Of a stretch of 64,000 nucleotides of DNA, positions 3,617 to 64,000 are shown piece by piece. The position numbers and the translations under genes were made by a program. A model generated the notes under the pieces. It did no database searches. It saw only the letters and a program-made list of their open reading frames with translations, and was not told the origin of the DNA. The stretch is from assembly GCA_003402705.1 (NCBI GenBank), contig QQNF01000001.1:74184-138183 (forward strand). Direction: 5' to 3'. This stretch comes from Verrucomicrobiota bacterium (GTDB lineage Bacteria; Verrucomicrobiota; Verrucomicrobiia; Verrucomicrobiales; V1-33). Numbering within the stretch: position 1 is the stretch's first letter; every line of letters starts with the position of its first letter.

Positions 3617-3702
3617 CGCCCCCCTACCAACAAACTCCCCTCCCCACCCGCAATCATCCCCTTGTCCCAAAGGGACAACCTATACCAGCCTGGGGCATCG
3701 CC
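3617..3702. repeat. Left ~85-bp direct repeat flanking the brnTA cassette
   Basis: About 80% identical by eye to 4514-4601. Shared core: GTCCCAAAG(G/C)GACAACCTATACCAGCCTGG(G/A)GCATCGCCC. Confidence 0.7.
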
Positions 3703-3860
3703 CCAGGAAAGACCCAAAAAACCAACCCAGCCCTGAAGGGGCGCCCTAACTCACATCCGTCCGACCCAACCGCACCTCTCCCAACACGCCCCGTCCCGTT
3801 GGGACGACCGATCAGTAGCCGGGGCGTGCCGCGAGCCACTCGCGGTACCCCCGGTTCCCA

Positions 3861-3908: not shown

Positions 3909-4130
3909 TCATTTCTCCTTCACCTTCCACTCCAGACTCAGCTTCCGACGATGCTCCGCACAGTCACGCAGATAAAGATTGATCAGATTCTGATATGGAA
4001 TCCCAGTCTCCAGCGCCATCCGCTTGAAGTATTCAATCACATCCATCTCCAGTCGGATCGTCACCGCCTTCTTCTCATTCTTCGTGTATGGATTGCGAAC
4101 GGCGTTCGTGAAATCGTACTCGGCTCTCAT
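3909..4130 (-). CDS. brnA: BrnA antitoxin (ribbon-helix-helix)
   Basis: MRAEYDFTNAVRNPY...KAVTIRLEMDVIEYFKRMALETGIPYQNLINLYLRDC is typical of BrnA. Its ATG overlaps the brnT stop (ATGA at 4127-4130). Confidence 0.75.
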   Translation of the reverse strand: MRAEYDFTNAVRNPYTKNEKKAVTIRLEMDVIEYFKRMALETGIPYQNLINLYLRDCAEHRRKLSLEWKVKEK

Positions 4131-4417
4131 GATTTTCTCTCCCAATATGGTTTCTGTTCCTTTGTTCCTGCCCGCCTCGCTGAAATAATCCGGATCACTC
4201 CCTCGGCCCGATGACAATGCACCACGACCAAGGCCCTGCCCTCGTCGCTCATCCCGAGAATGATGAACCGATCCTCAACCAGCGAATGGTCCGGATCAGG
4301 AATCACCAGCGCATCCTCGTCAGAGAACACGGATCGCGCCTCCCCAAATGTGACCCCGTGCTTCTTCTCGTTGGAAGCAGCCTTCTCAGGATCCCACTCG
4401 AACTTCAGCTCAGCCAT
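4127..4417 (-). CDS. brnT: BrnT toxin (DUF497 ribonuclease)
   Basis: MAELKFEWDPEKAASNEKKHGVTFGEARSVFSDEDALVIPD matches the BrnT signature (FEWD..K...N..KHGV.F.EA). A GTG at 4423 is an alternative start. Confidence 0.8.
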   Translation of the reverse strand: MAELKFEWDPEKAASNEKKHGVTFGEARSVFSDEDALVIPDPDHSLVEDRFIILGMSDEGRALVVVHCHRAEGVIRIISARRAGTKEQKPYWERKS

Positions 4418-4513
4418 GGACACAGCAATACACCATATTGCTGCCGGACTTCAAGTCCTCATCTCGAAGGCCCCTCTCCTAACCCGCCACCGGGTCCGCC
4501 AGACACCATGCTC

Positions 4514-4601
4514 GCCCCCCTCCCAACAACCTCCCCCTCCCCTCCCTCCATCATCCACTCGTCCCAAAGCGACAACCTATACCAGCCTGGAGCATCGCCC
4601 G
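4514..4601. repeat. Right ~85-bp direct repeat flanking the brnTA cassette
   Basis: Pairs with 3617-3702 in the same orientation. Confidence 0.7.
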
Positions 4602-26205: not shown

Positions 26206-26313
26206 AGCATACGTATGCCACGACGGGATTGAGGCAACCCGTTCCGTACCCCGAGCGGAATCCCGGTGAGAAACCCGAAATCAACTGCTCCTTCCCATCC
26301 ATGCCGGAAACGC

Positions 26314-26590
26314 CGCAATTGGACAGACCTCTTCGCAGGGGCGCCTCGCCACCTCCAGAGGTCCCGCCACCTATCAGGCTCTCCCGCCCCAAGTCGACAC
26401 GCCCCTTCCAGCGTTCTCCCTGGCCACCCGGACCTCCAGCACCCCGCAATTGGACAAGGGACCTTCAGAAGCCTGGCCATCTGAACGATCCGCCTCCTCA
26501 TCCCGCAGGGATGACAGCATGAAGCCGGTGGTCGAGCTCGGCACGAGCGACACCACCAGAACGCCGCAATCGGACAGGCCTCTTCGCAGG
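26314..26590. repeat. Cluster of three copies of a dispersed ~26-nt repeat CGCAAT(T/C)GGACAG(G/A)CCTCTTCGCAGG
   Basis: Copies are at 26314-26339, 26445-26471 (diverged) and 26565-26590. Further copies are at 39287-39312 and, inverted, at 9436-9457. Confidence 0.65.
26473..26557. repeat. Left ~85-bp direct repeat flanking vapBC-1
   Basis: CTGGCCATCTGAACGATCCGCCTC(C)TCATCCCGCAGGGAT...GAAGCCGGTGGT(C/T)GAGCTCGGCACGAGCGACACCACC. About 90% identical by eye to 27338-27421. Confidence 0.75.
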
Positions 26591-26654
26591 GACCTACCGG
26601 CGCGAACCCGATGCCTTGCGCTTGCGCTGCATTGCGGCAATGCGATTATCCTGC

Positions 26655-26897
26655 ATGACTGTAGTCGTTCCCATCAGCAAGCGAGGCACCGTGACGCTGC
26701 CTCCTGCCCTTCGCCGCAGGTTTGGTCTCGAAACCGAGAACCCCTTGGTGATCATCGAAGAACGGGACGGGGAACTGGTTCTGCGCCCTGCCGTGGCAGT
26801 GGCCGTGCGCGATCTGCCGAAGGCGGTCGTCGAGCGGTGGATTCAGGAGGATGAAGCGGGAATGCGGGAATTCGAGGCAACGCCGCCGCCGCAATGA
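26655..26897 (+). CDS. vapB: AbrB/SpoVT-type antitoxin (VapB-like)
   Basis: MTVVVPISKRGTVTLPPALRRRFGL is an AbrB/MazE looped-hinge motif. Its stop overlaps the vapC ATG. Confidence 0.75.
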   Translation: MTVVVPISKRGTVTLPPALRRRFGLETENPLVIIEERDGELVLRPAVAVAVRDLPKAVVERWIQEDEAGMREFEATPPPQ

Positions 26898-27349
26898 TTC
26901 TATTTCTGGATACCAGTGTCCTTCTGGCCGCCGCTGGCTCGGAAACGGGCGCGTCCCGTTACGTCTGCACCCAAGGAGGGCCACGGCATGGATGGAGGCT
27001 CCTCACCTCAGGTTATTGCGTGCAGGAAACGCTGCGCAATCTGCCCAAACTCGGCTCCGGCGCGGCATTGGCCTGGACTACAGTTGTCGAACCGGTAATC
27101 GAAATCGTGGCGGATGTCGTGTCGCTAGATCAGGCGCTCGTCTTCCCCAAGGCCAAAGACAGACCAGTCGTCATTTCGGCTCTCGCGGCCCAAGCAGGCG
27201 TCCTGCTCACTCTCGACCGAACCGATTTCCACGCATCGCTCGGGCCCCAGCTCTACGGCATGGACATCCGCACCCCTGCCGACTTTCTCATCGAGCAGCG
27301 CCTCAAAGGAAGCATCTGCATCCGGAACCCCAGAGGTCTGGCCATCTGA
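26894..27349 (+). CDS. vapC: PIN-domain toxin (VapC-like)
   Basis: MILFLDTSVLLAAAG (first acidic PIN residue) and ...LLTLDRTDF... The last 4 codons and the stop lie inside the right flanking repeat. Confidence 0.8.
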   Translation: MILFLDTSVLLAAAGSETGASRYVCTQGGPRHGWRLLTSGYCVQETLRNLPKLGSGAALAWTTVVEPVIEIVADVVSLDQALVFPKAKDRPVVISALAAQAGVLLTLDRTDFHASLGPQLYGMDIRTPADFLIEQRLKGSICIRNPRGLAI

Positions 27350-27421
27350 ACGATCCGCCTCTCATCCCGCAGGGATCACCGGCTGAAGCCGGTGGTTGAG
27401 CTCGGCACGAGCGACACCACC
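27338..27421. repeat. Right ~85-bp direct repeat flanking vapBC-1
   Basis: Pairs with 26473-26557. Contains the hairpin CACCGGC-TGAA-GCCGGTG. Confidence 0.75.
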
Positions 27422-27517
27422 GGAAAACGCACCAAATTAAATCGCATGCCCGGCAGGGGTGCCGCCCTGAGCCCTCCAGCGGTCAGGCCACTCAACCGTT
27501 CTGTTCCTGATAGCGCT

Positions 27518-39187: not shown

Positions 39188-39435
39188 CCGTGAAGGGGCC
39201 GTGCTTCAGCCAACGATCAGAAATCAGATCGAGGTCCCAGCACGTCTTTCAGCATCAAGAACCGCTACGATTAGGGTGCCGCGCGCCGCAATCGGACAGG
39301 CCTCTTCTCAGAGACCTCGGCGCGTTACAAACTGCACCACCTGAGATGGCAAAGTGACCACCGGGTCGTGGAGCTCGTCCGCCCATTCCGCCATCCCGGC
39401 AGCTCCCGACCCCGCCGCGCCACTCCGCCGCCACC

Positions 39436-55135: not shown

Positions 55136-55918
55136 TCAACGCTTCGCAGTCGCATCCATCTCGGCCGTGCTCCACATCTCAATCTTCTCGCTGCCGCTCG
55201 GCGGCACGAAGGCAAACTGCGACGCGGCCGGCACCCCCATCTGCCATCCCTTGAACCGGATGCGCACCTGCGGCTGACCGTCACGCTTGAACGTCGCCAC
55301 CAGACGCCGCGGCAATTGATCCGCCACCCCGATCCACAATTCCGCATCCGCCACCGACCCGCTCAATCCGATCCGGTGGCACGCCACCCCACCCAAGCCC
55401 AGAAACCCGCCGTCCTTCGCACGGCCCAGATACGTCACCCTCTGCGCATTCCCCCGCATCTTCGCCCCGGGATCGCTCACCACAAACTCCGCCAGCGGCG
55501 GCGTGAATCCATACGTCCGGTCCAGCTTCGCCACCAGCCCGTCAATGTCCGTCCGCATCGGCAGCACCGCATGGTAATTCGACTCCACGTCCAGCAGCGA
55601 AAGCGTCGCCCCGTCCGCCACAATCCGACGGCTCCCCGTCTTGCTCGCCGACGTCGCCGCCAGCTTCCCCGGCCGGGACACCGCCACCGAAACCTTCGCC
55701 TTTTCCGCCACATCCCGGCCTTCCAGCAACGGCGCATCAATCTCCCGCACCGCCTGGAACTGGAAACCAGGAGCGGACGCCAGCTTCGCCGACATCCCCC
55801 GCAACAATTCAGCGGCGTCAGGCTCAGCCGCCCGCACCGGACCACAAATACCGGAAATCAGCGCCACAGCGCCAAGGAATCGATTGAATGTCAGCTTCAT
55901 AAGTTTGTTGTGCGCCAT
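55136..55918 (-). CDS. DUF2092 periplasmic LolA-like protein (alternative ATG at 55900)
   Basis: Signal peptide, then AEPDAAELLRGMSAKLASAPGFQFQAVREID... and ...ELWIGVADQLPRRLVATFK... Confidence 0.65.
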   Translation of the reverse strand: MAHNKLMKLTFNRFLGAVALISGICGPVRAAEPDAAELLRGMSAKLASAPGFQFQAVREIDAPLLEGRDVAEKAKVSVAVSRPGKLAATSASKTGSRRIVADGATLSLLDVESNYHAVLPMRTDIDGLVAKLDRTYGFTPPLAEFVVSDPGAKMRGNAQRVTYLGRAKDGGFLGLGGVACHRIGLSGSVADAELWIGVADQLPRRLVATFKRDGQPQVRIRFKGWQMGVPAASQFAFVPPSGSEKIEMWSTAEMDATAKR

Positions 55919-55987
55919 ACCGGCAGCAGGCCGATACTAACGGCTTCATACGTCTTGCCAACCGAAATATCAGGGCACGCCCGCTCC

Positions 55988-56617
55988 TCACCCGGCCGCC
56001 ACCCGCCGCTCCCGCACCCGCGTCAGCAGCGCCACCGCCGCCGCCATCAACGCCCCAAGCCCCGCCAGCGCCATGTCCCGGTGCGCATCCCACGGATCCC
56101 CCTGCGTCCCGAGATACGCCGCCCCCAGTTCCCCTCCAAACACCTCCGCCGCCCCCCACTCGAACAATTCATAAAGCACCGACGTCGACAGAATCATGTC
56201 CACCGAAAACGCCCACGCCCACCGCGGCACCGGTGCCACCCGGTACGAAAGCAGTTCCTTGAGCGGCCGCGCCAGCAGCAAGCCATAACTGAAATGCACC
56301 AGCCGGTCGAAGTGATTCCTCCCCGGCACCACCGCCTGCCCCGTCAGCACGCCCCACCACTCACGATAGGGCACTTCCGAATACGTGTAGTGCGCCCCGA
56401 TCTCATGCACCATCAGAAACCCGAACACCAGCACCCACGACAACCGGCTCAACGGCACCCGGCAGTAAATCCAGCGCGCCAGCACCAGCGACGCCGCCAC
56501 CAGCACGTTCTCCAGCAGCCAGTCCGCAGGATGCCACGGCCGGACCGCCGACCACACAAACACCACCGCAAAGCCCGCGCTCAGCCCGCGGACCAGTGAC
56601 CGGTGTTCACCATTCAT
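55988..56617 (-). CDS. DUF2238 (YjdF-like) inner membrane protein
   Basis: ATG at 56617. ...WLLENVLV...VHEIGAHYTYSEVPY...RNHFDRLVHFSYGLL... Confidence 0.65.
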   Translation of the reverse strand: MNGEHRSLVRGLSAGFAVVFVWSAVRPWHPADWLLENVLVAASLVLARWIYCRVPLSRLSWVLVFGFLMVHEIGAHYTYSEVPYREWWGVLTGQAVVPGRNHFDRLVHFSYGLLLARPLKELLSYRVAPVPRWAWAFSVDMILSTSVLYELFEWGAAEVFGGELGAAYLGTQGDPWDAHRDMALAGLGALMAAAVALLTRVRERRVAAG

Positions 56618-56666: not shown

Positions 56667-57929
56667 TCACGCCTTGACCCGGCGCACGTTCGCCCCCAGC
56701 CGCGACAGCTTGTCGTCAATGTGCTCGTAGCCGCGGTCGATGTGATAGAGCCGGTTGATCTCCGTCTCGCCTTCCGCACCCAGCCCCGCCAGCACCAGCG
56801 CCGCACTCGCCCGCAGATCGCTCGCCATGACCGGCGCACCGCTCAGTTGCGGCACTCCCTTGATGACCGCCGTCGCCCCTTCCAGCGTGATCTGCGCCCC
56901 CATCCGGTTCAGTTCCGGCACGTGCATGAACCGTTGCGGGAAAATCGTCTCCGTGATCACACTGATCCCCGGAACGCTAGCATAAAGCGCCGTGAACTGC
57001 GCCTGCATGTCCGTCGGAAATCCGGGATACGGCTCCGTGCGAATCTCCCCGCCCCGCGGATTCTCCGCGCGCGACACCGTGATGCTCTCGCCCTCCACCG
57101 TCACCGGATAACCACTATCTGTCAGGGTCTTCAGAAACGCCGTCATGTGTTCCGGACAGCAGCGCCGCAGCGTCACCCGCTTGCCCGCAATCGCCCCGGC
57201 AATCAGAAACGTCCCCGCCTCGATCCGGTCCGCGATCACCGTGTGCTCCGCCCCGTGCAGCTCCCGCACCCCTTCAATCACAATCCGCCGCGTCCCCGCC
57301 CCTTCAATCTTCGCCCCCATCCGGATCAGGAAATTCGCTAGGTCCTCCACCTCCGGCTCCATCGCCGCCCCTTCAATGACCGTCGTCCCCGGCACCAGCA
57401 CCGCCGCCATCATCAGATTGTCCGTGCCCAGCACCGTCGATCCATGCTTGCCCCGCATGTTCACCTCCCGGCCACCCATGCCCTCGACCGCCTTGATGTG
57501 CATGTTCCCGCCCTGCACCGACACACTCGCGCCCAATTGCTCAAGCCCCCGCAAATGCAGATCCACCGGCCGGTCGCCAATCACACAACCTCCCGGCAGC
57601 GACACCATCGCCTCCCCCGTCCGACCCAGCAGCGGCCCCATCACACAGATCGACGCCCGCATCCGCCGCACCAGATCGTAAGGCGCTTCGCTCTTCACCT
57701 CCTCCGCCTCCACCATCACCGTCCCGCTCGCCCGTTCCACATGCGCCCCCAGACTCGCCAGAATCTGCGTCATGTAATTCGTGTCGCTCAAATCCGGCAC
57801 CCGGTGAATCACACACCGGTCCCGCGTCAGCAGCGTCGCCGCCAGAATCGGCAGCGCCGAATTCTTCGATCCACTGACATAAACGTCCCCCTCCAGCAGG
57901 GAGCCTCCGGTAACGAGCAGTTTGTGCAT
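56667..57929 (-). CDS. murA: UDP-N-acetylglucosamine 1-carboxyvinyltransferase
   Basis: MHKLLVTGGSLLEGDVYVSGSKNSALPILAATLL...LPGGCVIGDRPVDLHL... Confidence 0.95.
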   Translation of the reverse strand: MHKLLVTGGSLLEGDVYVSGSKNSALPILAATLLTRDRCVIHRVPDLSDTNYMTQILASLGAHVERASGTVMVEAEEVKSEAPYDLVRRMRASICVMGPLLGRTGEAMVSLPGGCVIGDRPVDLHLRGLEQLGASVSVQGGNMHIKAVEGMGGREVNMRGKHGSTVLGTDNLMMAAVLVPGTTVIEGAAMEPEVEDLANFLIRMGAKIEGAGTRRIVIEGVRELHGAEHTVIADRIEAGTFLIAGAIAGKRVTLRRCCPEHMTAFLKTLTDSGYPVTVEGESITVSRAENPRGGEIRTEPYPGFPTDMQAQFTALYASVPGISVITETIFPQRFMHVPELNRMGAQITLEGATAVIKGVPQLSGAPVMASDLRASAALVLAGLGAEGETEINRLYHIDRGYEHIDDKLSRLGANVRRVKA

Positions 57930-58009
57930 GAAATAGTCAGGAAAATGGGGATTCCCAACCATCACCCCCCACCCGCCACCTTCAAGGAAGAACTCACCCC
58001 GCAACCACC
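57851..58009. repeat. Left direct repeat of the vapBC-2 insertion (functional murA 5' end plus upstream sequence)
   Basis: The first 61 nt are about 87% identical to 58870-58931, and the terminal ACTCACCCCGCAACCACC is shared with 58951-58968. Confidence 0.75.
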
Positions 58010-58036
58010 ACAGACGCACCACTGCGCCACCTCAGT

Positions 58037-58462
58037 TCAAGACTTCAGATGCAGAAACTGGATGCCGGGGAAGAGCGCAAAATCAGCATCCAAGGAGACG
58101 AGGCGCGACCCGCTTGAGAGTGCGAAGGCGGCAAGGTAGGCGTCCGTCCACATGCGATGGGGAACGGCTGCCTGCGTGGTAAAGGCCTGGAAGTGAGCAT
58201 CCAGACTTGCTGGCTCGACAAGAAACCGGATGTTTGGCAGCACCAGCAAGTCCCGATAAATGGCCCACGCTTCAGCGTTGGTTTTGGGCTTAACAACTGC
58301 CCTGGGGTTGGTGGCCAGCCGGAGAAAGCCCTGCATGGTCGTGCGACAGAAGGCGAACTGGTGAGCCCCGTGACGACTCCAATAGTCGTGGGCGACATGG
58401 TGATGCACATGCCGTTGATCCACGAGCGCCAACCAGATGTTGACGTCGAGCAGATCAATCAT
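58037..58462 (-). CDS. vapC: PIN-domain toxin (VapC family)
   Basis: MIDLLDVNIWLALVDQRHVHH...TDAYLAAFALSSGSRLVSLDADF. Confidence 0.8.
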   Translation of the reverse strand: MIDLLDVNIWLALVDQRHVHHHVAHDYWSRHGAHQFAFCRTTMQGFLRLATNPRAVVKPKTNAEAWAIYRDLLVLPNIRFLVEPASLDAHFQAFTTQAAVPHRMWTDAYLAAFALSSGSRLVSLDADFALFPGIQFLHLKS

Positions 58463-58755
58463 GGCCTTGGCTGCGACTGGTTGGAAACACGGTGGAAACT
58501 CGCGACCTCGTCTTCTTCAAGAATGGCGTACAGCTCCGCATTGGAGCGAGCCGGGGTCACGGTGCCGTCGGCCTCCCACGCCACGGGGAGTGAATTGGGA
58601 TTGCGAGGAACCGTGTCCCTTCCCAATCGTTGCGGCCCACGCAAACCAGCCTCGATGTAGGTGGCGAGCAGTTCCTTGAGAGTGACGCCCTGCTGGACAG
58701 CGCGTGTTTTGACTTCCTTAAAAAGTGAGTCGGGCAGGTCGAGGGTCGTTCTCAT
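58459..58755 (-). CDS. vapB: VapB-type antitoxin (RHH-like)
   Basis: MRTTLDLPDSLFKEVKTRAVQQGVTLKELLATYIEAGL. Its stop overlaps the vapC ATG. Confidence 0.65.
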   Translation of the reverse strand: MRTTLDLPDSLFKEVKTRAVQQGVTLKELLATYIEAGLRGPQRLGRDTVPRNPNSLPVAWEADGTVTPARSNAELYAILEEDEVASFHRVSNQSQPRP

Positions 58756-58869
58756 GGGAGAGGAGTGATGCGGACGCATTAAAATGCAAAAATGCATCGA
58801 ATCCAAGGGAGAATTCAGGCCACCGAGTCGGGCTCTACCTGGATTCCACTGGCGCATCGGCCGCATGAC

Positions 58870-58968
58870 GCAGCGCCAAATTCTTCGATCCACCGACATA
58901 AACATCCCCATTCTAACAGGGAGCCTCCGGTGCGCCGAAATCAGGGAAAAACTCACCCCGCAACCACC
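58870..58968. repeat. Right direct repeat of the vapBC-2 insertion (decayed pseudo-copy of the murA 5' end, start-codon region deleted)
   Basis: GCAGCGCCAAATTCTTCGATCCACCGACATAAACATCCCC...CAGGGAGCCTCCGGT...ACTCACCCCGCAACCACC. Confidence 0.75.
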
Positions 58969-59555
58969 GAACCCCCACGTCCCCGCCGCCGCCTCCCCGC
59001 CAACAACGCCGCCGCCGTCAGCTATCCCGCACTCCCCGACTCCGGCACCACCGTGACCGTCACCGGTCCAAACAAAACCGAGCTGACCACATGCGTTCCT
59101 GGCACCAATGCCTCCGGCGCAATCCCCAGCGCCCCCGGACCACCCGGCACTAGCGCAAACCGCGCCTCACTCTGCCCCGGCCCCGACGCGAACGCCCGAT
59201 CAAACCCGAACGAAGCATAACTTCCATCCGCCCCGATCAGCAGCGAAACCACATCATACGCCCCACCGCTCCCCGTTTCCCTCACCCGCGCAACTGCCGG
59301 AAACACGCCCACAATGTCGCTCGCCCCACCGGAACCCGGCCCGCTCGCCACAAACATCCCCGACGGCAATTCCATCCGAAAACCACTGCTCAGCACCATG
59401 CTCACCGGCACCAGCGGATTCGCCGACATTTCCTCAAACGTGTACGTCGTCCCGCCCAACCCATCCGGCACCACCACCATCGCGATCGCCGCCCCCACCT
59501 CCGCCATCCCCAGCCATAACAAACAACACACAGAAACCGATCGGAACATCATCAT
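58953..59555 (-). pseudogene. Secreted PEP-CTERM protein gene with an in-frame TAG inside the sorting signal
   Basis: ...VTVTVVPESGSAG-TAG(59022-59024)-LTAAALLAGRRRRGRGGSVVAG-TGA. The annotated ORF stops at the TAG. Confidence 0.5.
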
Positions 59556-59567
59556 TGCGTTAGAAAA

Positions 59568-59933
59568 TTGAAAGCCTCGCCCTTCAGGCATCCGCTCCCA
59601 TCACCCCACTTCCCCCACCCCGCAACCGCACCGACCACCGAAGTCTGCTCCAATCATTACAGAACATCCAGCCATGACGTCTATGATGCGAGCGATCTCA
59701 TCAAACCTGGGCGTGACGCATACGTCCTACCGCCCTCCGACTGCCCCGCCTGCGGACGTCGGAAGCTGCTGGTGCGGGAGGATGCCTTCCGCACGGTCAG
59801 TGGCGCATCGAAGGACCGGGCCTCACGGGTGGTGTCCCTGAAAGCCTGGGAACTGAAGGTCACCTTCAGCGAACTTGGCTGGGCGGCGGTGAAACCGGGA
59901 ACGTCAACCTGCAGGGCATTCGCAGCCTTGTAG
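59568..59933 (+). CDS. Repeated-module ORF, copy A (most diverged; start uncertain)
   Basis: Contains ...GRRKLLVREDAFRTVSGASKDRASRVVSLKAWELKVTFSE, homologous to copies B and C. Confidence 0.3.
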   Translation: MKASPFRHPLPSPHFPHPATAPTTEVCSNHYRTSSHDVYDASDLIKPGRDAYVLPPSDCPACGRRKLLVREDAFRTVSGASKDRASRVVSLKAWELKVTFSELGWAAVKPGTSTCRAFAAL

Positions 59934-59958
59934 TCAAGGCCGTGGAACATCGATTTAG

Positions 59959-60032
59959 CTAGCAGACACTGCGCACCGTGCCCTCCTTCACTTCCCGGTG
60001 CCTCGGCACGGGAGCGACTCATTGAGCTTCAT
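59959..60032 (-). pseudogene. hicA: Vestigial hicA toxin (internal deletion plus frameshift)
   Basis: An ATG overlaps the hicB stop (ATGA) and gives MKLNESLP.. then a stop. A shifted frame encodes VPRHREVKEGTVRSVC-stop, resembling the HicA C-terminus (P.H..kE[IL]k.GTlrsI.KQ). Confidence 0.35.
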
Positions 60033-60268
60033 GCCGGAGCCAGTTCAATGCGATGCCGCACGCTACCTGGGGCGGGCTTGCGCTTCCGGGCTTCATCCCG
60101 GTGGTAGTCGAGCACAAGACGCAGCGCATCCAGCAGATTGGCCTCCGCCTCCTCTACCGTCTCCCCTTCCGAAAACACTTCCGGAAACTCTTCAAACGCG
60201 CAGGTGAAGCCTCCCTCGGGGGCTGGCTCATATACGGCCGTCAGATTTAGTTTGGCAGATGATTTCAT
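60029..60268 (-). CDS. hicB: HicB-family antitoxin (UPF0150 fold)
   Basis: LTAVYEPAPEGGFTCAFEEFPEVFSEGETVEEAEANLLDALRLVLD is a typical HicB N-terminal domain. Confidence 0.75.
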   Translation of the reverse strand: MKSSAKLNLTAVYEPAPEGGFTCAFEEFPEVFSEGETVEEAEANLLDALRLVLDYHRDEARKRKPAPGSVRHRIELAPA

Positions 60269-60351
60269 GGCCGCAGTGTGCGGGACAGAGCCTTCCGCTT
60301 CAAGTTCAAGTTGTCCGCTGGCATTCGCGAACCCGCCAGGGGTACCTCCCC

Positions 60352-60594
60352 ATGCCCCCCGGCCGCGAACAACAGAAGCCCTTGGAGCTGCTAGTGCGGG
60401 AGAATGTCTTCCTCACGGTCAGCGACGCATGGAAGGACCGCACCTCCGGCATGGTGTCTTTGAAGGGCCGGGAACTGACGGTCCATTTCAGCGACCCAGC
60501 AAAGCGCGATGCATTCATCGATCGACGCATGGATCGGATCCCCCACGTTCGACAGCTTTGTCACTCCCAAAAAGATCAGCGCCCCGGCCCATGA
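60352..60594 (+). CDS. Repeated-module ORF, copy B
   Basis: MPPGREQQKPLELLVRENVFLTVSDAWKDRTSGMVSLKGRELTVHFSDPAKRDAF... Divergent from hicB. Confidence 0.4.
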   Translation: MPPGREQQKPLELLVRENVFLTVSDAWKDRTSGMVSLKGRELTVHFSDPAKRDAFIDRRMDRIPHVRQLCHSQKDQRPGP

Positions 60595-60654
60595 AAACGA
60601 AGGCAACTCCGGAAAACCAGATCGCTATCCCGCCCATCAGGTTCTAGCATTTCC

Positions 60655-61221
60655 CTACGTATCCAGTGCATCAAGCAGCGGTTTCAGGTCAAAAAACATC
60701 GTTCTGAACTGTTCACCTTCGCGGGGTACACCGCTTGGATCGGCGAAGACAAATCCGAACTTTTCGTAATAGCCCGCCACATCGTAATCGTTGTCCGGAT
60801 CGAAGAGCGCGTCCACCGTGACGAAACGTGCTCCTACCCGGGGACAAAGCTCGCATGCGATGTAGCGAAATGCCCATTTCATCAGCGCAGTCCCGGCTCC
60901 TTTCGCCCGTTGGTCTGCCGCCAGCAGGCCGATCTTGATTGCAGGGAAGCTCCGATACCTAACTTTTTCTGCTTCCAGCAGCGGCGATTCCACGAGCAGC
61001 CTGTCCGAGATCAGAGTAATGTAGGCAGCGAGCACACCATCCACGTCCAGATACCAGCACGCACAAATCGACGCGGTACACTCCCGCGCGATCTTTCCCT
61101 GCTTCCAGTAGGTTCCAAACTCTCCGCGCCGAGGGCGGAATCCCGCATGGGACGGCATCTGCAACGGGTTCAGCCGTCTGACCGGAAGCGCCGCGAAGTC
61201 AATTTCCTCATATCGGCTCAT
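60655..61221 (-). CDS. GNAT acetyltransferase of the TacT/KacT-like toxin type
   Basis: ...FPAIKIGLLAADQRAKGAGTALMKWAFRYI...GARFVTVDALFD...VAGYYEKFGFVF. Its ATG overlaps the stop of a small upstream ORF. Confidence 0.65.
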   Translation of the reverse strand: MSRYEEIDFAALPVRRLNPLQMPSHAGFRPRRGEFGTYWKQGKIARECTASICACWYLDVDGVLAAYITLISDRLLVESPLLEAEKVRYRSFPAIKIGLLAADQRAKGAGTALMKWAFRYIACELCPRVGARFVTVDALFDPDNDYDVAGYYEKFGFVFADPSGVPREGEQFRTMFFDLKPLLDALDT

Positions 61222-61412
61222 CGCTGCCCGCCAGAACGTGCAGTCCTTTTCGTTATCCCCGTGGGAGCGGCTTTCATTTCCGCGACAAGGGTTGCGATGA
61301 AGGCTTGGCCCTGAGGGGTGCTGATCGGTTTGCCACTTTTCACGGCACGCAGAACGCTCGTCGCCTGTTTACCGGTGGCCGGGGCAGAAATGGTGTCGAG
61401 CCTGAGCTTCAT
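61218..61412 (-). CDS. Small protein translationally coupled to the GNAT gene (putative antitoxin, not obviously DUF1778)
   Basis: MKLRLDTISAPATGKQATSVLRAVKSGKPISTPQGQAFIATLVAEMKAAPTGITKRTARSGGQR. ATGA overlap at 61218-61221. Confidence 0.45.
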   Translation of the reverse strand: MKLRLDTISAPATGKQATSVLRAVKSGKPISTPQGQAFIATLVAEMKAAPTGITKRTARSGGQR

Positions 61413-61448
61413 GGTCCCCAGTATCGCGTTCCGGCAGCGGTCCCGCAA

Positions 61449-61643
61449 ATGAACTTTGCAGCAGCTTTCGACGACGCCAACCGCGGCCGACAGAAGGCCA
61501 TGGAGGTGCTGGTGCGGGAGAATGTCTTCCGCACGGTCAGCGACGCGTGGAGGGACCGGGCCTCCGGCATGGTGTCTTTGAAGGGCCGGGAACTGACGGT
61601 CACCTTCAGCGACCCGGCAAAGCGCGATGAGTTCTTCACCTAG
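61449..61643 (+). CDS. Repeated-module ORF, copy C (64 aa)
   Basis: MNFAAAFDDANRGRQKAMEVLVRENVFRTVSDAWRDRASGMVSLKGRELTVTFSDPAKRDEFFT. Divergent from the GNAT operon. Confidence 0.45.
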   Translation: MNFAAAFDDANRGRQKAMEVLVRENVFRTVSDAWRDRASGMVSLKGRELTVTFSDPAKRDEFFT

Positions 61644-61845: not shown

Positions 61846-64000
61846 TCACCACCCGGTGGACAGCAGTTCCCTCACGCTGACCGCATTGAGTACGGAACTG
61901 CATGTCTCCCAGTCATCATCCTCAACCCGGCTGTACTTCACGTCGAAAGGGTTCCTCGTCGCTGTCGTCCTGTCGATGAGCTGCCGGGCCTCCTTCTCAT
62001 CATGAAGCGCCACCTGAACCCAGACATCCTCGAGCGTGTCTGGAATCTGCCCGAAAAGTCCGTGAATCGCCTCGAGCCTGTCGGCTAGCACCTCGTGAAC
62101 CCTGTCCTCTACCGAGCCCCGATAGCGGAGATTGGCGATCCAGACCTCGCTCCTCGCCTGCCCGATTCGCTGGATGCGTCCCTTGCGCTGCTCAAGGCGC
62201 GTCGGGTTCCATGGAAGGTCGATGTTGATCAGTGTTGCGAGTCGCTGGAGGTTCAGGCCCTCGGACGCAGCGTCCGTACCTAGCAGAAGCCTGAGGTCGC
62301 CGCTGCGGACCCGCTCCTTGAGAACGTTTCTGTCGCAGCGCTGGAACTTGCCTTCCCGCCAGAAGCCCGAGCGGTTGCTCCCCGCGTAAAGGCCGATGTC
62401 GATGTGGCTGAACTCCGCGCGCCTCGCCAGCTCATCGCCAACCCAGCGGACGGTATCGTAATACTGCGAGAAGAGGATGCACCCGAGATCCAGCCATCGG
62501 GCGGTGACGCCATCGTGAGTTCCGAGCAGGTAGCCGATCAGCGCTTCCAACTTCGGGTCGTTGTTCCCTCCCTGCATGAGCAGATCGAGGCAGCGCCGGA
62601 GCGAAGCGAACTCCGCATCGGTGAAGTTCTTGAATTCGCTCGCGCCCTGAGGCGGTCGTCCCGGCTGCGTCGGCTCTTCCTCCTCCCCGTCGTCTTCTTC
62701 CTCTTCCTCCACTGCGCCTGGTTCCTCGCCCAGCAGTTTCCTGATGGTGCGTCGTCCCGCCTCCATCGAGCTTCCAATCCGCCGCAGCAGCAAGGTCTTG
62801 AAGAATCCCGCCCCTTTCACCCTCTGCTTGAGAAGCTGCGAAAATGCTTCCGCTTCGTCGTAGGCCTCCTTCAGGTAGCTGCCCAGCACGAGCGCGCCGT
62901 TGCTCTCCTCGCCGAACAGTCTGACCGCCACCTTCGGAAGAAAATAGCTACCGGTAGCCGGATTGATCGTCGCCTCCAGATAGCCGCGGGTCCGGCGGAC
63001 AATGCACCGGAGCAGTGGATTGAACCGCTCTCCGTACGTCGGAAGCAGGCTATTGCGAAGCTGTACATTCCGGATCGCCGGCGAGAGCTTCTCCAGACTC
63101 TCCGGGTTGAACTGCCACCGGTCGTCCCGGGCATCGAGATTGCGCCGGATCCGATCAATCGCCGGATCCTCGAAGCGGGACGGCAAGGGATCTCGCACAT
63201 ACTGCCAACCTTCACGGTCGTCATCCGCAGGTACAGCCGCCACCCCCGTGGCCACATCAAGGCAACGACTCGGGCGGAACCACGGGCTCGTCTGCGTCCA
63301 GCCGCCAAGGACACCTTCGTTCCCGTACGAAAGGATGTGAAGAAGATCCCACGCCTCCACCGGATGAAGCTGCACCGGCGTGGCTGTCGCCAGCAGCATG
63401 CTCTTTGTCTTCGGTCCGATCTCGCGCAGAAAAGCCATCAGCTTGTTCGGCTCGGCCTTCTCGTTGATCTTGTCCTCGCCCGCATCCACCGCAGGTACAT
63501 TTCGCCGGCGGGCACGATGCGACTCATCGACAATCACACACGTGTATCGCCGACTGAGCAGCTGACCGACCGCCTCGGACATGCCCCTCACAACCAGTCC
63601 CTGTGAGACCAGTCCTATCCGCCTCGGGCAACGGCCGAGCGATTTTGGGCCTTCTGACGGATACTCCAGATCGTTCTCGTCGACCCATGCACGGCCATTC
63701 CAACGTGCCGACGGAAGCAGAAGGAGTTCCATCAGTTCATCCTGCCACTGCTGGAGCAGCGGTTTCGGAGCCAGAACCAGAATCGGGCCGCCGCCGGGAT
63801 CATCCAGCGCCATCAGCAGAGCGGCCATCGCCAGCTGCACGGTCTTTCCAAGGCCGACCTGGTCGGCTAGAACAAGCCTTGCTCCTCCCAGACGGTGCCG
63901 CTCCAGCGCCAGCCGGGCAAAGTACTTCTGGTGCGGCCACAGCCCCTGCTCCCGACGGTAAACCGGCGATTCCACCGCCGCCGCCGCCGCCACCGCGGTC
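61846..64000 (-). CDS. SNF2-family helicase (DEAD-like N lobe, long insert, helicase C); 5' end may lie beyond the window
   Basis: LWPHQ...LADQVGLGKTVQ (motif I), VIVDESHRARR (motif II), LLATATPVQ (III), NIDLPWNPTRLEQRKGRIQRIGQ (VI). The frame is still open at 64000 (GTG at 63993). Confidence 0.85.
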   Translation of the reverse strand, partial: TAVAAAAAVESPVYRREQGLWPHQKYFARLALERHRLGGARLVLADQVGLGKTVQLAMAALLMALDDPGGGPILVLAPKPLLQQWQDELMELLLLPSARWNGRAWVDENDLEYPSEGPKSLGRCPRRIGLVSQGLVVRGMSEAVGQLLSRRYTCVIVDESHRARRRNVPAVDAGEDKINEKAEPNKLMAFLREIGPKTKSMLLATATPVQLHPVEAWDLLHILSYGNEGVLGGWTQTSPWFRPSRCLDVATGVAAVPADDDREGWQYVRDPLPSRFEDPAIDRIRRNLDARDDRWQFNPESLEKLSPAIRNVQLRNSLLPTYGERFNPLLRCIVRRTRGYLEATINPATGSYFLPKVAVRLFGEESNGALVLGSYLKEAYDEAEAFSQLLKQRVKGAGFFKTLLLRRIGSSMEAGRRTIRKLLGEEPGAVEEEEEDDGEEEEPTQPGRPPQGASEFKNFTDAEFASLRRCLDLLMQGGNNDPKLEALIGYLLGTHDGVTARWLDLGCILFSQYYDTVRWVGDELARRAEFSHIDIGLYAGSNRSGFWREGKFQRCDRNVLKERVRSGDLRLLLGTDAASEGLNLQRLATLINIDLPWNPTRLEQRKGRIQRIGQARSEVWIANLRYRGSVEDRVHEVLADRLEAIHGLFGQIPDTLEDVWVQVALHDEKEARQLIDRTTATRNPFDVKYSRVEDDDWETCSSVLNAVSVRELLSTGW

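Follow-up and report, generated by a model that had tools for sequence, protein, structure and literature searches.

This study deals with a toxin-antitoxin (TA) module, vapBC-2, and with the duplicated sequence that brackets it on a 64-kb stretch of DNA from a Verrucomicrobiota bacterium (contig QQNF01000001.1 of assembly GCA_003402705.1). This whole stretch is called the window below, and all coordinates are window positions. The genes of the locus are all carried by the minus strand. At the left, murA (56667-57929) is intact and codes for a UDP-N-acetylglucosamine 1-carboxyvinyltransferase of 420 amino acids (aa; Pfam EPSP_synthase, 4e-106), with 420-aa homologues at 100% coverage. Its 5' part belongs to the left, functional repeat copy (57851-58036), made up of murA codons 1-26 (57851-57929), the leader and a relic of a PEP-CTERM gene. 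The insert between the two copies (58037-58869, 833 nucleotides, nt) has vapB and vapC as its only genes. The stop codon of vapC (58037-58462), which encodes a PIN-domain toxin of 141 aa, abuts the left copy. Next come vapB (58459-58755), coding for a 98-aa antitoxin candidate, a control region borne by the cassette (58756-58806) in which direct reading of the sequence finds two palindromes, and about 63 nt of unassigned origin (58807-58869) that vary by 3-5% among strains. The right, decayed repeat copy (58870-58995) consists of a murA fragment, an intergenic remnant and the true 3' end of the gene for a PEP-CTERM-type secreted protein (58957-59591). Within 5 kb of the insert are found murA, DUF2238, DUF2092, PEP-CTERM, hicB, GNAT and SNF2 genes.

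The repeat is recovered alike by a repeat finder, by MAFFT and by self-BLAST of the whole window. In the 64-kb self-comparison, 57851-57911 matches 58870-58931 in 55 of 62 columns (88.7%) with one 1-nt indel (E 2.7e-14), and 57982-58009 matches 58941-58968 at 26 positions out of 28 (E 5e-4). An earlier note on this DNA, made from the letters alone, had reported that 57851-58009 recurs at 58870-58968, with about 87% identity over the first 61 nt, and had placed the vapBC module exactly between the two copies. The recurrence and the position of the module are both confirmed, and the identity now stands at 88.7% over 62 columns. The unit has two copies only in the window; in loci of the same lineage, matches to it are confined to the same two positions.

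The two copies are not equally preserved. The right copy is devoid of about 59 nt, equivalent to 57912-57970, that include the murA ATG, codons 1-6 and most of the leader. Read on the minus strand, its remaining part carries murA codons 7-26 (58870-58931) with a frameshifting 1-nt insertion, then the intergenic remnant left after the deletion (58932-58956) and the true PEP-CTERM 3' end (58957-58995). In addition, two substitutions present in all strains modify the conserved SGSKNSALP motif of murA (S to G and S to L). With the deletion, the frameshift and the changes in this motif, the view of the right copy as a decaying pseudo-copy that had lost some 60 nt around the start codon is borne out. 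Import of the right copy from another murA allele was considered and rejected: the synonymous-looking changes (CTG to TTA, GAG to GAA, GAC to GAT) occur only in the sublineage of the window, and the changes common to all strains strike the conserved SGSKNSALP motif and look like decay. On the other side of the insert, ~57995-58036 in the left copy translates as a decayed relic of the last PEP-CTERM codons.

Strain variants, described below, define the extent of the unit. In contigs L004 and L005, the right copy aligns with the left one past 58009, up to ~58031-58036, and the left copy of contig L120 retains a relic of ~26 PEP-CTERM codons. From these variants, the duplicated unit measures ~183-220 nt (at least 183; ~220 in L120). 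Both copies hold the PEP-CTERM 3' end (the last ~15-26 codons), the whole intergenic region and murA codons 1-26. The last ~25 nt of the unit are C-rich and align weakly in this window; a lenient local alignment used for extending the repeat drifted into C-rich sequence and was discarded. The boundaries given in the earlier note do not hold, the unit being longer (~57851-58036 and 58870-58995). Likewise, the last PEP-CTERM codons are indeed in the right copy, as that note had it, but not in the right copy alone. Its ancestral order, PEP-CTERM gene then murA, stands because the same junction is present twice.

The unit also contains a likely regulatory region. The motif GAGTTCnnCCTTG is located at ~57982-57998, about 60 nt upstream of the murA ATG, and the PEP-CTERM stop codon overlaps it. 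It is kept upstream of murA in relatives having unrelated upstream genes (L089-L094, MurA 83-90% identical). Since it is conserved despite these differing genes, the murA control region would lie inside the duplicated unit, and GAGTTCnnCCTTG is probably part of the murA promoter or leader. A promoter scan of 57700-59700 gave no sigma-70 consensus site.

The neighbour on the other side was identified in the earlier note as a PEP-CTERM gene, and comparison of strains agrees. In L004, L005 and L120, the gene is uninterrupted and its product shows a canonical sorting signal, VPEPGSAGLLAVAALLAGRRRRGG..., with a tail VPEPGSAGLL..AGRRRRG and a TGA in the 18-mer shared by the repeat copies; the intact L120 tail reaches 19.0 bits with Pfam PEP-CTERM, below the cut-off of 20.7. 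In the window, the open frame (59022-59591, 189 aa) is cut by an in-frame TAG (59022-59024). Read through this nonsense codon, it gives VPESGSAG*LTAAALLAGRRRRGRGGSVVAG up to the ancestral stop, TGA 58957-58959, which is inside the shared 18-mer. The TAG and VPES in place of VPEP (59034-59042) are found in the window strain, L006 and L007; in the window strain, they probably reflect a recent loss of cell-surface anchoring.

The cassette has the layout of a type II TA module. VapC matches Pfam PIN (PF01850) at 4.7e-10, with 40.6 bits for a cut-off of 23.6; residues D6, D107 and D124/D126 are visible in its sequence, and its 194 homologues are mostly annotated as PIN toxins in Verrucomicrobiota metagenomes. 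VapB is an antitoxin candidate by its position and by the 4-nt overlap of its stop with the vapC start (ATGA). Its sequence gives sub-threshold ribbon-helix-helix matches only (CopG_antitoxin 0.035, RHH_5 0.06, VapB_antitoxin 0.19), and between strains the protein varies by 1 residue at most. Upstream of vapB, two perfect 5+5 palindromes read by eye, ATGCGgaCGCAT (58768-58779) and ATGCAaaaaTGCAT (58784-58797), form a putative VapB operator. A weak promoter resemblance, TTGGAT-17-TTTAAT, was also read by eye upstream of vapB and was not reported by the consensus scan. Thus, the PIN toxin following a small antitoxin gene, the 4-nt overlap and the upstream palindromes are as in the VapBC family, while the antitoxin reaches ribbon-helix-helix models only below threshold.

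The module differs from its surroundings. Its guanine-cytosine (GC) content is 58.8% with a GC skew of +0.10, as compared with 64.9% and -0.30 for murA and 62.6% and -0.42 for the PEP-CTERM gene, even though the strand is the same for all three. At the nucleotide level, homology with the vapBC loci showing 70-76% VapC aa identity is limited to 58046-58794, that is, to the coding and control regions; in 1.26 Mb of fetched sequence, 58795-58869 used as a query matched nothing beyond this locus. Judging from its sequence, vapBC-2 is a compositionally foreign, self-contained type II TA cassette of ~0.83 kb, and the earlier idea of a foreign module between two copies of the junction agrees with a composition that departs from that of both neighbours. 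Flanking repeats as a property of this vapBC family are ruled out by the repeat-less loci L096-L109.

At least 18 metagenome contigs code for an identical VapC protein and, among the matches listed, murA adjoins it in 10 of 10 places. Eight of these contigs, L001-L008, match the window at 97-100% identity, and in each of them both copies are present and the ~59-nt deletion is shared. With L120, the two-copy structure is found on nine contigs from ENA, JGI and Logan assemblies. As it recurs in these three sources, the repeat is no assembly artefact, and the structure belongs to an uncultured Verrucomicrobiota lineage seen in at least nine independent metagenome assemblies. L120 is a more distant variant, its murA region being 94.6% identical, and its right copy has the same ~59-nt deletion. 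It shows, in order, the 3' part of the PEP-CTERM gene, the right copy, 1.5 kb, a 153-nt remnant of vapB (86% identical), the left copy and murA; vapC is gone, and the slot between the copies holds two genes of 204 and 71 aa without Pfam match. On the same contig (1-2840), the PEP-CTERM gene is cut short in its 5' part by another PIN gene. Since L120 shares both copies, the deletion and the vapB remnant, the duplication and vapBC predate the split of the strains, and the slot has been rewritten in L120 since then.

Divergence along the locus is uneven. Among L001-L005, no other part of the 4 kb varies as much as the ~130 nt of the right copy, where 12-33 differences per 100 nt are counted and indels have arisen independently; all nine variants share the same deletion, while their further indels differ. 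In the same five contigs, 0-5 of the 763 nt of the vapBC block (58037-58799) differ, as compared with ~3% in murA. Divergence is 5-20 times lower in this block than on either side of it, a pattern that recent transfer of the cassette between strains could explain; divergence is patchy over the 4 kb, with 55400-56000 equally conserved, so that nothing is built on this observation.

The search for an allele without the insert covered several collections. All nine close variants carry both copies. No record holds the exact 420-aa MurA, and a 431-aa form is found only on L007. A 23-mer from the murA leader has 0 matches in the JGI metagenome contig collection. Scanning metagenome contigs with the PEP-CTERM protein yielded one locus, that of L120, which is not empty and has a replaced, decayed cassette. 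In the genome contig collection, no MurA is closer than 69% identity, the best ones being from Chthoniobacterales, Terrimicrobiaceae and other Verrucomicrobiota. Among the relatives with 83-90% MurA identity, the genes beside murA are prmC, an aminotransferase gene, NAGPA or a peptidase M3 gene; with such unrelated neighbours, synteny offers no help. Finally, a duplicated murA junction free of an insert appears on none of the contigs.

Features of known mobile elements were looked for in the window. There is neither a tRNA nor an Rfam family, which discards a tRNA att site or an Rfam RNA as the identity of the repeat. No recombinase or integrase domain is found among the open reading frames (ORFs) of 55-64 kb, nor between the copies or within 5 kb of them. 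The cassette ends have no terminal inverted repeats, and the duplication spans at least 183 base pairs (bp) with no short target-site duplication (<15 bp). Hence, a transposon or insertion sequence is rejected, and the earlier remark that a transposase would not leave such a footprint accords with the lack of inverted termini, short target duplication and mobility gene. Folded as single-stranded DNA, the repeat units give no attC-like bulged hairpin (z-scores +1.1 to -1.9); with no attC hairpin and no intI seen, an integron gene cassette is rejected too.

The vapBC-2 locus is not the only one of its kind in the window. Self-BLAST for local direct repeats (at least 80% identity over at least 60 nt) gives four sets, and all four bracket TA cassettes. 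With random placement of intervals of the observed sizes, such an association has P of about 2e-7. From one cassette to another, the repeats show no sequence relationship and are not of the same length. Besides the duplicated PEP-CTERM/murA junction around vapBC-2 (58037-58755, minus strand), they flank brnT/brnA (3909-4423, minus strand; Pfam 5.6e-28 and 2.3e-8; repeats 3617-3703 and 4513-4600, 88.6% identical) and, on the plus strand, vapBC-1 (26655-27349; repeats 26466-26561 and 27331-27425, 90.6%), which is composed of a MazE/AbrB-type antitoxin gene (26655-26897) and a PIN-like toxin gene (26894-27349). The fourth set, on the minus strand, brackets hicB and a pair made of a GNAT-type toxin and a small antitoxin (60655-61412), together spanning 59959-61412. 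Here, three copies of a 110-157-nt unit, the T repeat (59742-59885, 60363-60519 and 61481-61637; 80-88% identical), separate the PEP-CTERM gene, the hicB cassette and the GNAT cassette. The T repeat region (59742-61637) has no protein-family match in either reading and no RNA-family match, and nhmmer finds no further copies of the repeat. T-repeat copy B is missing from L001 and L002, and homology with the window breaks beside it; relative to L001, hicA has an 88-nt deletion.

At vapBC-1, the right repeat starts 19 nt before the toxin stop and supplies the last codons and the stop. No further copy of the hairpin element contained in this repeat was detected in 1.26 Mb of fetched sequence. A short dispersed intergenic repeat, CCGCAATTGGACAG..CTCTTCGCAGGG (30-45 nt, ~90% identical), occurs at 26309-26340, 26440-26470, 26556-26604 and 39284-39324. 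One of its copies forms the 5' end of vapBC-1, which suggests this very genome, or a close relative of it, as the source of the cassette. Two diverged pairs of direct repeats, 31809-32455/34287-34942 (661 nt, 68%) and 52868-53289/53847-54271 (437 nt, 65%), resemble paralogous genes or domains and have no relation to the TA pattern.

The region upstream of murA, at 58-64 kb, looks like a defence and TA island whose content differs between strains. Directly upstream of the TA row, a 715-aa SNF2/helicase-C gene (61846-63993, minus strand) runs toward the end of the window. Between the T repeat and the PEP-CTERM gene (equivalent to window 59634-59724), L001 (2222-5171), L002 and L008 have 2.9 kb of inserted DNA, in which an AAA_15/AAA_21 ATPase gene and a DUF4276 gene form a PARIS-like defence pair. 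Strains with this insertion also have window 58989-59321 deleted, and no long flanking repeats were detected around it.

The brnTA locus provides what the murA junction lacks, namely filled and empty alleles. brnT (4127-4423) and brnA (3909-4136), on the minus strand, lie between 88-nt direct repeats (DR). Alleles were compared among contigs having an identical R3H neighbour (L110-L119 and the window). The filled allele, X-[28 nt + DR* + promoter + brnT + brnA + terminator]-A-DR-Y, is that of the window, L110, L112 and L117-L119. L113 (GCA_027483175.1, ~89-90% identical) carries the empty allele X-A-DR-Y with one repeat copy, and L111 and L114-L116 have X-A'-deletion-Y. The insertion point shows a 3-nt ATT microhomology and is 194 nt upstream of the resident repeat; the corresponding 194-nt segment A, between the cassette and the downstream repeat, is not duplicated upstream. 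In an alignment read by eye, DR* is ~94% identical to the single copy of L113, while its identity to the downstream copy of the window itself is 88.6%. This geometry would not be explained by a simple staggered cut, nor by one crossover inside the repeat; it fits a template switch in several steps, or import of the cassette along with part of a homeologous locus. Moreover, upstream of R3H, an insert-free tandem duplication of 86 nt, its two copies 91% identical, is present in L111 (3745-3923), L114 and L115, strains without brnTA, adjacent to the position that the brnTA repeat has in other strains. It may be either a spontaneous duplication or a footprint. Its presence in empty brnTA alleles indicates that duplications of such size arise locally in the lineage.

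The closest known parallel is the insertion with long target duplication described for restriction-modification (RM) systems (Furuta, Abe & Kobayashi, NAR 2010, PMC2853133, after Nobusato et al., Gene 2000 259:99). In these RM cases, direct repeats of 46-423 bp border the insert; they copy the target, occur nowhere else in the genome and have a length that varies between cases. Mobility genes are absent, the repeats at times overlap the ends of neighbouring genes, and the mechanism is unexplained; the authors suggest that DNA breakage by the cargo drives the event (PMC2853133). A review reports the same pattern for RM systems only (PMC3874152), and the term has also been applied to an rRNA operon, tandem duplication followed by recombination being listed as an alternative (PMC3457768). 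No description of the pattern for TA cassettes was found in the searchable literature. Furuta et al. (2010) required repeats longer than 30 bp, a single-copy empty site, an insert below 20 kb without mobility genes, and no tRNA, att or dispersed repeat. vapBC-2 likewise is a small addiction-type unit, an 833-nt insert without mobility genes; its target repeats, longer than 30 bp, are locus-unique in the window and in loci of the same lineage and within the ~50-400 bp range, are neither a tRNA nor, on the same scope, a dispersed repeat, and are accompanied by no integrase, transposase or inverted repeats. In contrast with the RM cases, which are defined by empty sites, no empty allele of the vapBC-2 locus was found in the collections covered; the same junction of gene end, intergenic region and gene start in both copies implies a single ancestral copy. 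The cargo is different as well, a type II TA unit with a small antitoxin and an RNase-type PIN toxin. As such a unit is no DNA-cleaving restriction system, breakage driven by the cargo cannot apply here. vapBC-2 can be viewed, on the sequence evidence, as TA cargo in a known and mechanistically unexplained insertion class, the type of cargo being the new part.

Chromosomal integrons, such as the Vibrio superintegron, also carry TA gene cassettes. The hicBA/GNAT/T-repeat row (59742-61637) resembles an integron array in that promoter-bearing cassettes of ~0.8-1 kb follow one another in one orientation with spacers of ~100-150 nt. Unlike integrons, vapBC-2 has repeats that copy neighbouring host sequence, the 5' end of an essential gene, and no intI is seen; nor is there an imperfect hairpin of attC type, the z-scores being 0.05 to -1.9.

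The reading that we regard as probable, if not strongly so, is a one-step illegitimate duplicative insertion of vapBC-2 with long target duplication, the cassette being kept by the intactness of its neighbours and by addiction. In a single illegitimate event, vapBC-2 would have entered the PEP-CTERM/murA junction and duplicated ~190-220 bp of target. This may have occurred by one of two routes: two strand breaks ~200 bp apart would be joined to the incoming fragment and the gaps filled, or a nascent strand would switch template into the cassette and then back to a point ~200 bp behind. The duplication would have made the insertion viable, the murA-side copy keeping promoter and start and the PEP-CTERM-side copy keeping the 3' end. 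The redundant halves have decayed, which in this scheme would have happened later, the murA fragment losing ~59 nt and its frame and the left PEP-CTERM relic degenerating. As for persistence, recombination between the copies would delete the addiction module and penalise the losers, and erosion of the homology would thereby be favoured.

Several observations weigh against this reading. No contig carries an empty site in which the PEP-CTERM gene runs straight to murA with one copy of the unit, and for this reason we infer the insertion from internal evidence only. vapBC loci of the same family in other genomes (L096-L109, 70-76% VapC identity) have no flanking repeats. At brnTA, the upstream repeat does not abut a simple target duplication and may have been imported from another lineage. 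Part of the vapBC-1 repeat is the hairpin element, also present in a distant Chthoniobacterales metagenome-assembled genome (L009 1725-1778), and the source of the T-repeat unit is unassigned. Stabilisation by addiction would depend on a toxin activity that is predicted, and L120 shows that vapC can be lost. Furthermore, staggered-break repair, template switching, a Campbell-type crossover and prior tandem duplication all give the same final structure.

Among these, Campbell-type integration was the mechanism proposed in the earlier note. A small circle carrying vapBC and ~190-220 bp of the junction would enter by one homologous crossover, as suicide or integrative plasmids do when the shared segment ends up directly duplicated on both sides. 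Two homologous segments, at first both complete, around a cassette are the exact product expected; the copies, as reconstructed from the strain variants, were near identical at first, only 2 substitutions in 61 nt being common to all right copies, and recombination between the repeats of such a DR-cassette-DR structure would release a circle able to re-enter cassette-free cells. However, two illegitimate joints would first be needed to give the circle a piece of host DNA that covers the ends of two genes, and the problem of origin is then only moved. The homologous segment would be a 200-bp piece of this very junction, and unlike Campbell plasmids the insert has no backbone, replication or transfer genes. 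No circular form or copy in a second context was seen, VapC adjoining murA at each of the ten places mentioned above (contigs of at least 2 kb), and the unduplicated 194-nt segment of brnTA is impossible from a crossover within the repeat. The proposal is therefore not specifically supported: it needs a pre-loaded circle and misfits the brnTA geometry. We hold it unlikely as the origin of the structure; such a route may have served in the later spread of the cassette. In a different order of events, slippage or unequal exchange would have produced a ~200-bp tandem duplication and vapBC would have been inserted later at or near the duplication junction. The insert-free 86-nt duplications of L111, L114 and L115, with their 91% identity, speak for such precursors. 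Yet the later insertion would have to strike the duplication junction exactly, at several loci, and the insert-free duplicated murA junction expected as an intermediate appears on no contig, which makes this order of events quite improbable.

Integrative elements that restore the gene end they interrupt are well known. vapBC-2 might be the relic of such a site-specific element (attL/attR, CIME-like) that targeted the 5' end of murA, brought a replacement 5' end and then lost its integrase and most of its cargo, with vapBC as what is left. The murA upstream region is indeed a variable island, its PARIS-like, hicBA, GNAT and SNF2 genes differing between strains. But neither an integrase or recombinase, between the copies or within 5 kb, nor a tRNA accompanies the repeat. 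An attP site would have no reason to cover the ends of two genes, among them the 3' end of the gene upstream, the repeats of the other cassettes are unrelated and of different lengths with no shared short core, and the insert is only 0.83 kb in all strains. We give this origin very little credit. Lastly, chance, low-complexity GC-rich sequence or an assembly artefact might be suspected from the C-rich, weakly aligned last ~25 nt of the unit, and the earlier note had itself raised low complexity as a worry. The repeat is not low-complexity: its core (E 2.7e-14) reads as murA codons 7-26 and recurs in nine independent assemblies, so that this explanation is refuted and its probability negligible.

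The movement of chromosomal TA modules is poorly understood beyond integrons, transposons and prophages. In this respect, the vapBC-2 footprint is unusually clean, with a duplicated target in which an essential gene begins and the gene beside it ends. As the duplicated stretch includes the murA start and the neighbour's end, the repeat must be a copy of the target. A footprint of this kind around TA pairs of RNase and acetyltransferase type would point to a property shared with RM systems, namely post-segregational killing rather than DNA cutting. Such killing would act as a filter, preserving insertions that would otherwise be unstable. We tentatively extend this to a general proposal that we consider doubtful at present: in this Verrucomicrobiota lineage and maybe more broadly, addiction modules would colonise chromosomes by recombinase-independent duplicative insertion at gene boundaries, copying ~90-220 bp of target, and killing would block reversal by deletion between the repeats and select for one of them to erode quickly, so that the cassette is locked in. 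Its value would be higher if the recurrent association of repeats with TA cassettes and the addiction filter hold genome-wide. Filled and empty brnTA alleles coexist in public metagenomes, which opens the process to study at the population level and in model bacteria. If the proposal is true, the long target duplications of TA and RM systems would be unified by addiction rather than by DNA cleavage by the cargo. It would also account for TA movement without an integrase and for rows of cassettes separated by copies of a neighbour's leader, and flanking genes, even essential ones, would stay intact through the copying of the target.

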